Source of the DNA: an uncultured Clostridium sp.
GTDB lineage: Bacteria; Bacillota; Clostridia; TANB77; CAG-508
Reading direction: 5' to 3'
Assembly (NCBI GenBank): GCA_902461935.1
Contig: CABPZP010000002.1
Location: 43,685-107,684 of the forward strand
Length of the DNA stretch: 64,000 nucleotides
In this document: piece after piece, positions 11,485-15,993 of the stretch
Layout: the number at the start of each line of letters is the position of its first letter
Numbering within the stretch: position 1 is the first letter of the stretch
The notes under the pieces: model-generated
The model's input: the letters and a program-made list of their open reading frames with translations, nothing else
Databases searched by the model: none
What the model was told of the DNA's origin: nothing
Position numbers and translations under genes: made by a program

Positions 11485-12627
11485 ATGAAAATAAGATATT
11501 TTGACCATGCTGCTACAACGGCAGTAAAAGAAGAAGTTTTAAAAGAAATGATACCATATTATTGCATAGAATATGGCAATGCTTCTTCTTTATATAGTAT
11601 TGGTAGAAAAAGTAGAAAAATTTTAGAAAATTCAAGAGAAAAGGTTGCAAGAGTTTTAAATTGCAAACCAAAGGAAATTTATTTTACTTCATGTGGAAGT
11701 GAAAGTGATAATCTAGCTATAAAAGGTATTGCAAGAAAACACAAAAATAAAGGAAAACATATTATAACAACAAAAATTGAGCATCCAGCTGTATTAAATA
11801 CATGTAAAAGTTTAGAAAAAGATGGTTTTGTTGTTACATATCTTGGAGTAGATAAAGATGGTTTTATAAGTTTGGAAGAGTTAAAAAATAGCATTAGAGA
11901 AGATACAATTTTAATAAGTATAATGTTTGCAAATAATGAAATAGGAACTATAGAACCAATAAAAAAAATTGGAAGAATTGCAAAAGAAAAGGGAGTTATT
12001 TTTCATACAGATTGTGTTCAAGCTGTTGGAAATGTAAAAATAGATGTTAAAGAATTAGGAATAGATTTACTTTCACTTTCAAGTCATAAATTTTATGGAC
12101 CAAAGGGAGTAGGGGCAATATATATTAATGAAAATGTAGAATTTGAGAAAATACAAGATGGAGGACACCAAGAAAAAAATAAAAGAGCAGGAACAGAAAA
12201 TATAGCAGGAATTGTAGGTTTAGCAAAAGCAATAGAATTGGCAGATAAGAATTTGGAAAAATATAATAATAAATTAATAAATTTAAGAGATTTCTACTTT
12301 GATGAAATAACAAAAAATATACCCAATGTAAAAATAAATGGAAGTAAAGAAAAAAGGTTACCAGGAAATGCAAATGTATCTTTTAAAAACATAAATGGAG
12401 AACAATTATTATTAGAATTAGATAGTTTAGGAATATGTGCTTCAAGTGGCTCTGCATGCACTTCAGGGCAAAGTGAACCATCACACGTATTAACTGCAAT
12501 AGGATTAAATGCAGAATACATACAAGGCTCACTTAGAACTACATTTGGAGAAGAAAATACAAAAGAAGATGTAGAATTTCTAATAAAATCTATAATTGAA
12601 ATAACAAATAAAATAGGAAAAAAATAA
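11485..12627 (+). CDS. nifS: cysteine desulfurase (NifS/IscS class V aminotransferase)
   Basis: SSHKFYGPKG (PLP lysine) and SSGSACTSG (catalytic Cys loop). Confidence 0.9.
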   Translation: MKIRYFDHAATTAVKEEVLKEMIPYYCIEYGNASSLYSIGRKSRKILENSREKVARVLNCKPKEIYFTSCGSESDNLAIKGIARKHKNKGKHIITTKIEHPAVLNTCKSLEKDGFVVTYLGVDKDGFISLEELKNSIREDTILISIMFANNEIGTIEPIKKIGRIAKEKGVIFHTDCVQAVGNVKIDVKELGIDLLSLSSHKFYGPKGVGAIYINENVEFEKIQDGGHQEKNKRAGTENIAGIVGLAKAIELADKNLEKYNNKLINLRDFYFDEITKNIPNVKINGSKEKRLPGNANVSFKNINGEQLLLELDSLGICASSGSACTSGQSEPSHVLTAIGLNAEYIQGSLRTTFGEENTKEDVEFLIKSIIEITNKIGKK

Positions 12628-12646
12628 TGAGTATAAAATATAAAAA

Positions 12647-12674
12647 CAGAAGAATGATAATATTCATTCTTCTG
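12647..12674. terminator. bidirectional hairpin between convergent nifS and 12685..13347
   Basis: cagaagaatga-taatat-tcattcttctg. Confidence 0.6.
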
Positions 12675-12684
12675 CTTGATGTAA

Positions 12685-13347
12685 TTAAGATAAAGTAAAT
12701 CCAATTCTAGAAAGACTTTCTTCAATTTCGGTTCTGCATTCTCTAGAAAGTTCGTAAAGTATTAAAGTATTTTCTAAACACAAATCTTCAATAGTATTGA
12801 TTCCTTTCCTTTTTAAAATATTATAGCTTTTTGTTGAAATATTGAGTTTAGAAATTGGATCTTTAAGTGAAATTTGATTTCTCTTTAAATTTTTTAATTC
12901 ATTTCTAATATTTTTTTGCTTTACTTCTAATTCCATAGAATAATTGGTTAAATATTTTTCATAATACAAAATTTTTCTGAACTTTTGTAAGGTTGATGGA
13001 TGTCTCAATCTTTTTAAAAGTTCTGCTTCAGTTTTACATGTTCTTTTGGAAAGCTTTATTCCAAGTTCAGTTGCAGTTTTTTTAGAACTTTTGTAACCTA
13101 AAAGACAAAATTCTGAAATTATAATCCGCTGTTCCTGATCTGTAAAGGTGCTAATTATATTAGATGTAATATTTTTTAGTTCATTATAGTCACATTTATC
13201 AAATTTTGCACTTTCAATGGTGTCTTTTCTAAATATTGCTAACATTAAGCAACTAAGCCCAATAGCAATATTTTTCTCTTTTTCCGATATGAATAACTTA
13301 TTTTTATAAATCATAAGTTTTTCTTCGGTAAAAGCTTTTCTGTTCAT
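12685..13347 (-). CDS. hypothetical regulator with a sigma-70 region-4-like HTH followed by an RpoA alpha-CTD-like helix-hairpin-helix domain
   Basis: FTDQEQRIIISEF...TATELGIKLSKRTCKTEAELLKRLRHP resembles sigma region 4.2. The C-terminus ISKLNISTKSYNILKRKGINTIEDL...SLSRIGF aligns with this window's own RpoA ([22 protein letters not shown]...KLRSLGF). Confidence 0.55.
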   Translation of the reverse strand: MNRKAFTEEKLMIYKNKLFISEKEKNIAIGLSCLMLAIFRKDTIESAKFDKCDYNELKNITSNIISTFTDQEQRIIISEFCLLGYKSSKKTATELGIKLSKRTCKTEAELLKRLRHPSTLQKFRKILYYEKYLTNYSMELEVKQKNIRNELKNLKRNQISLKDPISKLNISTKSYNILKRKGINTIEDLCLENTLILYELSRECRTEIEESLSRIGFTLS

Positions 13348-13550
13348 AGTAGTACCTCCTTGATAATATTATTTTATTGCACAGTAAGTTACAATTATTA
13401 TGAATACAATTACTCTCCTTTCATTTTAGTAACATCAATTTTATAAAGGCAAAAAGCCTAAAACAATTGTATTTTATCATAGTTCACATAAAAATAAAAG
13501 CTTTAAATAAAAAAAACGGTGTAATTTTTTATTTACACCGTTTTTTGAAC

Positions 13551-15708: not shown

Positions 15709-15993
15709 ATGGCAGAGAAGAAAAATAAAACCTTAGAAAAAGCAAGAAAAGAAATGACATATCTAACAGGAGATGAAGAAATAAGAAGACTAGCAGAACT
15801 AAGAGAAAAATGGGAGATGGATTGGAATAGCTCTATGGATTATTCAAAAAAAGAAGGAATAAAAGAGGGTGTAACCGAAGGAAGAAAAAAAGAAAGACTA
15901 GAAAATGCAAAAAAAATGAAAGAAGAGAAAATACCAACAGAAACAATCATGAAAATAACAGGTTTAACAAAAGAAAAAGTAGAAAAGCTATAA
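15709..15993 (+). CDS. stand-alone fragment resembling the C-terminus of Rpn-family (TIGR01784-type) recombination-promoting nuclease/putative transposase
   Basis: 94 aa ending ENAKKMKEEKIPTETIMKITGLTKEKVEKL, the typical Rpn C-terminal helix pair. No nuclease core. Confidence 0.5.
   Translation: MAEKKNKTLEKARKEMTYLTGDEEIRRLAELREKWEMDWNSSMDYSKKEGIKEGVTEGRKKERLENAKKMKEEKIPTETIMKITGLTKEKVEKL

Follow-up and report, generated by a model that had tools for sequence, protein, structure and literature searches.

A chromosomal member of a mostly phage-borne protein family combining sigma region 4-like and RNA polymerase alpha-CTD-like modules in an uncultured gut Clostridia bacterium

This study concerns a small gene in a 64,000-nucleotide stretch (the window) of contig CABPZP010000002.1, assembly GCA_902461935.1, which represents an uncultured human-gut Clostridia bacterium (1.44 Mb, about 27% G+C). 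By RpoA identity its nearest named relatives are uncultured Clostridium sp. UMGS1788 (97%) and Candidatus Merdicola (88-89%). The gene encodes a protein of 220 amino acids (aa), here called P0001, and it is well supported that this protein belongs to an unnamed, mostly phage-borne family in which a helix resembling the flap tip of the RNA polymerase (RNAP) beta subunit, a sigma region 4 module (sigma-4), a helical linker and an RpoA alpha C-terminal domain (alpha-CTD) follow one another without sigma region 2. There appears to be about an even chance that P0001, a divergent chromosomal member of this family, acts as a free-standing helix-turn-helix (HTH) DNA-binding regulator that recognises a sequence other than the -35 element and carries a weakened alpha-CTD accessory. 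The gene and its modules are located in the window as follows.

12685..13347, minus strand: open reading frame (ORF) of P0001, 220 aa plus stop codon, read from the sequence.
13231..13284, minus strand: N-terminal helix, residues 22-39 (..AIGLSCLMLAIF), with the beta flap-tip-helix-like motif LMLAIFRK (AlphaFold2 (AF2) model, motif matrix).
12967..13182, minus strand: sigma-70 region 4-like domain, residues ~56-127 (NCBIfam, phmmer, BLASTP, Foldseek, hhalign).
13006-13047, minus strand: HTH recognition helix, residues 101-114, followed by RLRHPS.
12868..12966, minus strand: helical linker, residues 128-160 (AF2 helix at 129-156).
12688..12867, minus strand: RpoA alpha-CTD-like helix-hairpin-helix (HhH) domain, residues 161-220 (Pfam, phmmer, BLASTP, fold, residue comparison).

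The first-pass annotation, made from the sequence alone, had likened the centre of the protein to sigma-70 region 4, and BLASTP, hhalign, NCBIfam and the predicted fold agree with it, although Pfam Sigma70_r4 itself does not match. Residues 36-124 align with the genome's own SigA by BLASTP (E 3e-8), and a weak match to the NCBIfam RpoD models covers residues 39-127 (E 7e-6 to 2e-4). For the closest relatives, the P0001 subfamily, a profile was built that hhalign aligned with SigA residues 290-378 at a probability of 98.7% (E 3e-16). The AF2 model of residues 1-130 (predicted template-modelling score 0.80), compared by Foldseek with the Protein Data Bank (PDB), retrieved chains that nearly all represent region 4 of sigma-A/sigma-70 and superpose at 2.4-3.0 A over 65-77 residues. 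The homologue P0004 clears both Pfam cut-offs, with 29.3 bits for Sigma70_r4 against 24.1. Profile comparison and fold together identify the central part of P0001 as a homologue of bona fide region 4 despite the missing Pfam match; the support from the single sequence is weaker, and the combined support is solid.

The likeness to region 4 of SigA/RpoD (4.1 and 4.2; PF04545) extends to the ..LLKRLRHPS ending and to the same predicted HTH fold, whereas P0001 lacks regions 1-3, keeps R586 alone among the -35 contacts, has one additional residue in the HTH turn and carries T in place of R603. Because regions 1-3 are absent, P0001 is not a sigma factor; Pfam found no Sigma70_r2 domain in it, and 220 aa leave no room for one. 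Assignment of its N-terminus to sigma region 3.2 was considered and is unsupported, the hhalign alignment to SigA beginning only at residue 37. The sigma-4-like part is strongly basic, with an isoelectric point (pI) of 9.9. Elsewhere in the assembly (contig C20:16212-16944), a SigE/SigK-type sporulation sigma gene has its region 4.2 in two frames, ...EVADML in one and (G)ISQSYISRLEKKIIKK... in the other, which looks like a one-base frameshift inside the HTH.

The C-terminal part of P0001 is a genuine homologue of the RpoA alpha-CTD. Its last ~55 aa had been equated with the alpha-CTD of the window's own RpoA, whose true gene lies at 60782-61729, and the comparison held up: BLASTP gave 19 identities in 59 positions (32%, E 3e-6) with one 3-residue gap, Pfam RNA_pol_A_CTD (PF03118) matched residues 157-212 at 31.2 bits (gathering cut-off 23.8), and phmmer against the PDB matched RpoA CTDs (E 4e-5). 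The AF2 model of the protein, with a predicted local distance difference test score (pLDDT) of 86.9, superposes on solved alpha-CTDs (3N97_B, 1Z3E_B, 3K4G) at 1.2-1.8 A over ~62 residues and has the double HhH fold; its confidence drops to pLDDT 67 at residues 191-200. It is therefore from the combined alpha-CTD and sigma-4 evidence, together with the homologues, that the similarity is seen to go beyond a generic HhH motif and beyond chance. What the first-pass annotation observed is thus confirmed for both modules.

Compared with RpoA alpha-CTDs (PF03118; PDB 3K4G, 1Z3E, 3GFK), to which it is joined by Pfam score, sequence identity and predicted fold, the P0001 domain nevertheless differs in several ways. 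It stands without the RpoA N-terminal dimerisation/assembly domain, since RpoA models match only residues ~121-219 of P0001 and do so far below their cut-offs. It has a 3-residue deletion between the hairpins and has lost the glycine of the second hairpin; it is neutral (pI 6.4) and evolves near-neutrally; of the '265 determinant' it keeps N268 only, plus a conservative R265K; and K and N stand in place of the acidic sigma-contact residues D259 and E261. An alpha-CTD and sigma region 4 lie side by side on upstream promoter (UP) element/-35 DNA in PDB 3N97, chains of which are among the best structural matches, and P0001 has both modules in one chain. In 3N97, however, they belong to separate subunits on RNAP, whereas in P0001 they are joined covalently by a ~35-residue helix, and the DNA contacts and mutual contact residues are mostly changed.

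Stand-alone alpha-CTD look-alikes are also encoded by phages, including uncultured Caudovirales (UniProt 'RNA polymerase, alpha subunit, C-terminal'), Mycobacterium phage Mithril and Rhodococcus phage Finch; these proteins differ from P0001 in having no sigma-4 module, and no characterisation was found for them either. In Bacillus phage vB_BmeM-Goe8 a 213-aa protein annotated 'RNA polymerase subunit alpha' consists of two alpha-CTD-like repeats and is encoded near both ends of the record (L111:1950-2591 and L112:4548-5189), which may be a terminal repeat. Many large public metagenome proteins of 600-2200 aa (P0009, P0010, P0013, P0021, P0044 and others) contain 3-11 tandem alpha-CTD-like repeats.

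The family was delimited by an exhaustive HMMER search over 1.84 billion representative proteins, which gave 416 matches at E <= 1e-10; among the best 150 of these, 35 cover both modules in one stretch. When P0001 and P0004 are added, Pfam recognises RNA_pol_A_CTD in 37/37 of the two-domain sequences, Sigma70_r4 in 35/37 (E <= 0.001) and Sigma70_r2 in 0/37, P0001 included. The earlier proposal that modules of two RNAP subunits are joined in a small polypeptide without sigma region 2 is thereby confirmed. A scan of IMG/VR revealed 79 viral loci, about 48 of which encode full two-domain proteins of 210-400 aa. The phage copies neighbour genes for DNA polymerase, ThyA, helicases, a methylase, a DnaD-like loader, thymidine kinase and NrdD, with no conserved neighbour in these loci (the best neighbour cluster occurs in 9 of the 48). 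No Sigma70_r2 domain was found in the 46 viral records with family members, 14 of them at least 90% complete. The fusion is rare in bacterial chromosomes: among 301 genomes sampled across the class only two encode it, that of P0001 and one in which the setting is phage-like. Another genome of the class (G353, Clostridia; contigs C43 and C21; L141:1474-2142) has two canonical-type copies, one of which adjoins small phage-like genes for a Lar-like zinc-ribbon protein and a resolvase-like protein and is probably located in a prophage.

The architecture had been called unusual. This holds in so far as no description or experimental study of a sigma-4/alpha-CTD fusion family was found in the literature, and it does not hold for rarity as such, the family being sizeable and mostly phage-borne. 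No curated NCBIfam, PHROG or PADLOC family represents the fusion, with domain-level matches only; PADLOC did not match P0001, and matched its relatives only at domain level, to MzaA at its sigma-4 end and to PglW in its HhH part. P0001 had no match among GenBank phages and PLSDB plasmids, the canonical member P0104 had no full-length two-domain match in GenBank phages, and the N-terminal patterns of the P0001 subfamily were absent from GTDB representative genomes and IMG/VR. A word-indexed homologue search returned only two matches and was uninformative.

The N-terminal helix of P0001 (residues 22-38 in the AF2 model, pLDDT ~90) brings a third piece of RNAP into the comparison; the first-pass annotation had passed over the 55 residues at this end. 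At their N-terminus the canonical family members share the motif [YW]P[YF]NL[A/L/I]x[A]x[V/I][F][G][D/E], and a position matrix was built on 34 distinct instances. The beta flap tip of the genus reads LLRAIFGEK; this sequence was taken from same-genus genomes, rpoB (RNA_pol_Rpb2_6) being unmatched anywhere in the source assembly, which is rated 96.6% complete, and present in those genomes, so that the gap presumably lies in the assembly. Under the matrix LLRAIFGE scores 17.4 bits, a value reached by 1 of the 416,369 8-mers in the proteome of the P0001 genome, and the next-best 8-mer of the RpoB fragment scores 6.1 bits; the result is robust to heavier pseudocounts and to dropping the most similar instances. 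The P0001 octamer LMLAIFRK occupies the same alignment columns without the YPxN prefix of the family motif and scores 10.8 bits, which places it in the top 9e-5 of proteome 8-mers. In RNAP the beta flap-tip helix is the docking surface for sigma region 4, by way of L901, I905 and F906, and L901, I905, F906 and G907 are the flap-tip residues with a role (PMC6755090).

On these sequence comparisons the family appears to imitate three parts of RNAP, the flap-tip helix, sigma-4 and the alpha-CTD, which come together at the -35/UP region. Read most simply, the N-terminal helix would lie in cis over the hydrophobic groove of sigma-4 as a cap, by analogy with engineered chimeras of sigma-A region 4 and the beta flap-tip helix (PDB 7KUG, 8CWR and 8CWT). 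These chimeras are among the top structural matches for P0001 residues 1-130, and the family bears a natural flap-tip-like motif N-terminal to sigma-4. They are laboratory constructs, however, whereas cis docking in the natural protein is a reading by analogy, and the P0001 motif is the weaker one (10.8 against 17.4 bits). The linker that follows sigma-4 has Leu or Ile at every seventh position (133, 140, 147, 154 and 161). Between-strain amino-acid variation peaks in the linker, as a haplotype block, and spares these five positions. A crude heptad test of the family linkers for coiled-coil dimerisation gave a weak tendency (mean z 1.1), P0001 having a single Leu/Ile stripe.

Contact residues separate P0001 from the canonical members. 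They are given in E. coli numbering, with R584-Q589 and R603 in sigma region 4 and D259-S299 in the alpha-CTD. In 53 canonical members the -35 residues R584 (35/53), E585 (44/53), R586 (53/53), R588 (48/53) and Q589 (50/53) are kept, as are the DNA determinant residues of the alpha-CTD, R265 (53/53), N268 (52/53), C269 (52/53), G296 (53/53), K/R298 (49/53) and S299 (44/53). At these positions the canonical members thus agree with housekeeping RNAP in 66-100% of cases, and in 83-100% for the '265 determinant'. In P0001, whose recognition helix is SKRTCKTEAELLKRLRHP, R584, E585, R586, R588 and Q589 read L/S, K, R, C and K, R603 reads T, and D259, E261, R265, C269, G296, K298 and S299 read K, N, K, I, S, E and C, with N268 kept. 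Only two of the 11 scored DNA-contact residues (R586 and N268) are therefore retained, plus the conservative R265K, and the alpha-sigma contact residues D259/E261 and R603 are lost as well. Judged by its sequence, P0001 has lost most of the residues that serve -35 reading by canonical sigma-4 and minor-groove binding of UP elements by the alpha-CTD. The suggestion that the protein could act as a UP-element/-35 competitor accordingly fits the canonical phage members, in which the contacts are nearly invariant, and fits P0001 poorly. The other roles raised there, a decoy or an anti-activator, are conceivable for P0001.

The subfamily of P0001 (P0004, P0006, P0008, P0028, P0062 and P0101) has a distinct N-terminal stretch of 55 residues, F[TS]E.KL.IY...E.EK..AIGLS.L.LAIF, and was found only on chromosomal or unplaced contigs; P0001 is its most eroded member. 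The alpha-CTD module is dispensable in close relatives: P0062 stops after sigma-4, and P0003, which is 92% identical to P0001 over residues 1-130, continues into an unrelated acidic tail. An origin of this tail as a frameshift of the window DNA was rejected on comparison. In P0008 (L243:248-1210) a long heptad-rich linker leads to two alpha-CTD-like repeats, of which the first is as eroded as that of P0001 and the second nearer to canonical. P0004 and P0006 occur in the context clpC-pgsA-[gene]-PDDEXK_2, with the PDDEXK_2 gene directly beside them (275 aa at L004:2331-3158, minus strand, and 194 aa at L240:7841-8425, minus strand, respectively). An Rpn/PDDEXK_2 'transposase-like' C-terminal fragment is also encoded at 15709-15993 (plus strand) in the window, 2.4 kb from the P0001 gene. 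This proximity may be a link to cassette movement, or a coincidence.

The P0001 ORF is a real, monocistronic gene that entered its lineage as a self-contained single-gene insertion, a feature that the first-pass annotation had missed. The elements around it are listed below.

13355..13361, minus strand: ribosome-binding site AAGGAGG, 7 nt 5' of the ATG, read from the sequence.
12644..12677, minus strand: intrinsic terminator of the inserted gene (terminator scan).
13511..13546, minus strand: terminator of the upstream SPFH gene, which is the upstream edge of the insertion; the same hairpin occurs in genomes without the gene.
~12628..13510, no strand: inserted cassette of ~880 bp (leader, gene and terminator), absent at the same site in sister genomes.

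The gene sits between an NfeD-SPFH operon and a convergent NifS-like gene. With a ribosome-binding site and an intrinsic terminator on either side it forms a self-contained transcription unit; a scan of the region gave three terminator-like sites where 0.2 were expected. A protein identical to P0001 is encoded on 22 metagenome contigs, the order NfeD-SPFH-[gene]-NifS was seen in 8/8 of the places shown, and wherever a metagenome place was shown for the species, the gene occupies the same site. The 90% identity cluster of P0001 has 34 members; among the 15 listed, 14 are 220 aa long and one is a 140-aa fragment. The 204 bp upstream of the gene are identical in eight contigs encoding the same allele.

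The flanking proteins are 97-99% identical in G020 and G022, the two genomes closest to that of P0001, where the stops of SPFH and NifS are ~65 bp apart with one terminator in common. SPFH and NifS are adjacent at 17 further same-genus loci, and in 5 loci NifS was not within the fetched stretch. Alignment places the insert directly after the SPFH terminator and before the stop codon of the NifS-like gene. No mobile-element signature was found at the insertion, with neither terminal inverted repeats nor a clear target duplication, and no phage or prophage context, the gene being a single insertion between core genes. In the window (12644-12677 and 12625-12627) the insertion separates the NifS-like gene from the bidirectional terminator that it shares with SPFH in sister genomes, and nifS termination may be less efficient because the new hairpin has a T-run in the minus orientation only.

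Selection on the gene was assessed from six alleles, which, read as DNA, are all open at 220 aa and show up to 21 amino-acid differences from P0001; the contigs encoding the identical protein are uninformative, since their DNA is identical too. Constraint on the gene as a whole is weak: the pairwise ratio of nonsynonymous to synonymous rates (dN/dS) is 0.42-0.59, compared with 0.02-0.14 for NfeD, SPFH and NifS at the same dS. Counts by domain were small, with p denoting an excess of synonymous changes. The N-terminal and sigma-4 part has 9 synonymous and 13 nonsynonymous changes, giving a nonsynonymous to synonymous ratio per site (pN/pS) of 0.35 (p = 0.017), and the excess in the most divergent allele pair has p = 0.002. 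For the linker (1 synonymous, 10 nonsynonymous) pN/pS is 2.1 (p = 0.88), and for the alpha-CTD-like part (3 synonymous, 12 nonsynonymous) it is 1.05 (p = 0.63). The N-terminal and sigma-4 part is thus under purifying selection, and the alpha-CTD-like part is not measurably so.

In the reading to which we give about even weight, P0001 would be a free-standing HTH DNA-binding regulator that acts away from the polymerase. The site recognised by its basic sigma-4-like domain would differ from TTGACA, its N-terminal helix would cover the hydrophobic groove in which the beta flap tip sits in the holoenzyme, and its alpha-CTD-like domain would be a weakened or vestigial accessory. Unable to start transcription, the protein would occupy DNA or contact RNAP as a repressor or modulator. 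This reading is favoured because the constrained part consists of the basic sigma-4 HTH and the putative capping helix, and because there is neither region 2 nor a partner gene and the alpha-CTD is decaying. A broader proposal is offered tentatively, as possible but on the doubtful side: in the whole family, P0001 included, nature could have copied into one chain the upstream promoter-recognition unit of bacterial RNAP, with a flap-tip mimic keeping a sigma-4 in the conformation that reads DNA and an alpha-CTD tethered to it. Phages would redirect transcription by seating a faithful version, with -35 and UP contacts identical to the host's, on host-type promoters; copies would have been captured and retargeted by gut Clostridia, and P0001 would be a re-specified sigma-4 regulator shedding its alpha-CTD.

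Several observations weigh against a free-standing regulator of this kind. Pfam Sigma70_r4 (PF04545) gave no match to P0001 even at E <= 10, and DNA binding might suffer from the extra residue in the HTH turn. The pN/pS of the whole gene (0.65) is not significantly below 1 (p = 0.13), so much of P0001 may be drifting, and the difference in constraint between sigma-4 and the alpha-CTD is a trend only (Fisher p = 0.29). An hhalign comparison of the subfamily profile with the beta flap chose the same alignment as the motif, at a non-significant probability of 0.9%. Phage ancestry of the P0001 subfamily, finally, is what we infer from the wider family only, the subfamily's own signature being absent from IMG/VR, GenBank phages and plasmids.

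Some of the same facts can be explained differently. P0001 could be directed at RNAP itself, its sigma-4 competing with sigma-A for the flap, or its flap-tip-like helix capturing sigma-A region 4 in trans in the manner of an anti-sigma or 'appropriation' factor, with the alpha-CTD titrating factors that contact alpha. All three modules do copy mutually contacting RNAP surfaces, and loss of DNA contacts with retention of the fold is to be expected if protein contacts matter more. Phages moreover target sigma region 4 and the flap, as with AsiA of T4 (PMC6755090), and the phage relatives of P0001 lie in early/middle gene modules. The T4 AsiA/MotA system is likewise a phage strategy at the interface of sigma region 4 and the flap tip (PMC6755090), but AsiA and MotA are unrelated to P0001 in sequence and fold and act by binding the host's sigma-70. 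A groove capped in cis would block docking on the flap, the alpha-sigma contacts D259, E261 and R603 have been lost too, and the basic character of the sigma-4-like domain (pI 9.9) suggests nucleic-acid binding, so that we regard an RNAP-directed role as unlikely. A decaying relic, left behind in the chromosome after transfer from a phage or another source, useless and drifting towards a pseudogene, is judged improbable to a similar degree. It would account for the overall pN/pS of 0.65 beside neighbours at 0.02-0.14, for an alpha-CTD and linker indistinguishable from neutral, for the erosion of both signature motifs with indels in both domains, and for the absence of the gene in sister genomes, and the genome does have another broken gene, the apparently frameshifted sigE. 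Decay is hard to reconcile with six alleles open at 220 aa and a length of 220 aa in 14/15 listed cluster members, with a strong ribosome-binding site, intact terminators and 204 bp upstream identical in eight contigs of the same allele, or with confident AF2 models and the synonymous excess in the N-terminal and sigma-4 part (p = 0.017, and p = 0.002 in the most divergent pair).

Fast evolution, presence/absence polymorphism and module swapping between close strains would also suit a mimic of sigma-A region 4 and the alpha-CTD kept by the host to intercept or sense phage proteins that hijack those surfaces, and very different versions occur at another sister-genome locus, at 33% identity between flanking genes of 97-99%. 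Such an immune decoy is nonetheless highly improbable for P0001, which has no effector domain, no partner gene and no PADLOC match, is monocistronic, and mimics its models poorly because functional residues are changed. The combination of a region 4 with the lack of a region 2 brings to mind, lastly, one half of a split sigma factor that would lend its region 4 to a separate region-2 protein, for which B. subtilis SigO-RsoA offers a two-subunit precedent. A partner was sought and none was found in the genome or the viral records: the P0001 gene stands alone between terminators, the phage loci have no conserved neighbour, and Sigma70_r2 occurs in 0/46 viral records. The six Sigma70_r2 matches in the genome all lie in frames of 243-381 aa, the length of a complete sigma factor, five of them with a region 4 match and the sixth (contig C16) reading as a full-length sigma factor. 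The split-sigma explanation, already disfavoured, is given almost no credence here.

Sigma region 4, the alpha-CTD and the flap tip are the RNAP elements that meet on the upstream half of a promoter, and they are what activators and phage take-over proteins mainly target. A widespread and largely phage-encoded family that packs look-alikes of all three into a small, non-transcribing protein points to promoter control or competition of a kind of which no description was found; its design is a new combination of known domains that recurs in sequence databases. P0001 itself, a degenerate copy that was captured, is of use chiefly as a data point on evolution. As a snapshot of a captured single-gene insertion, in which the sigma-4 core is under selection, the recognition residues have changed and the alpha-CTD is decaying, it helps to tell which module of the family is essential.

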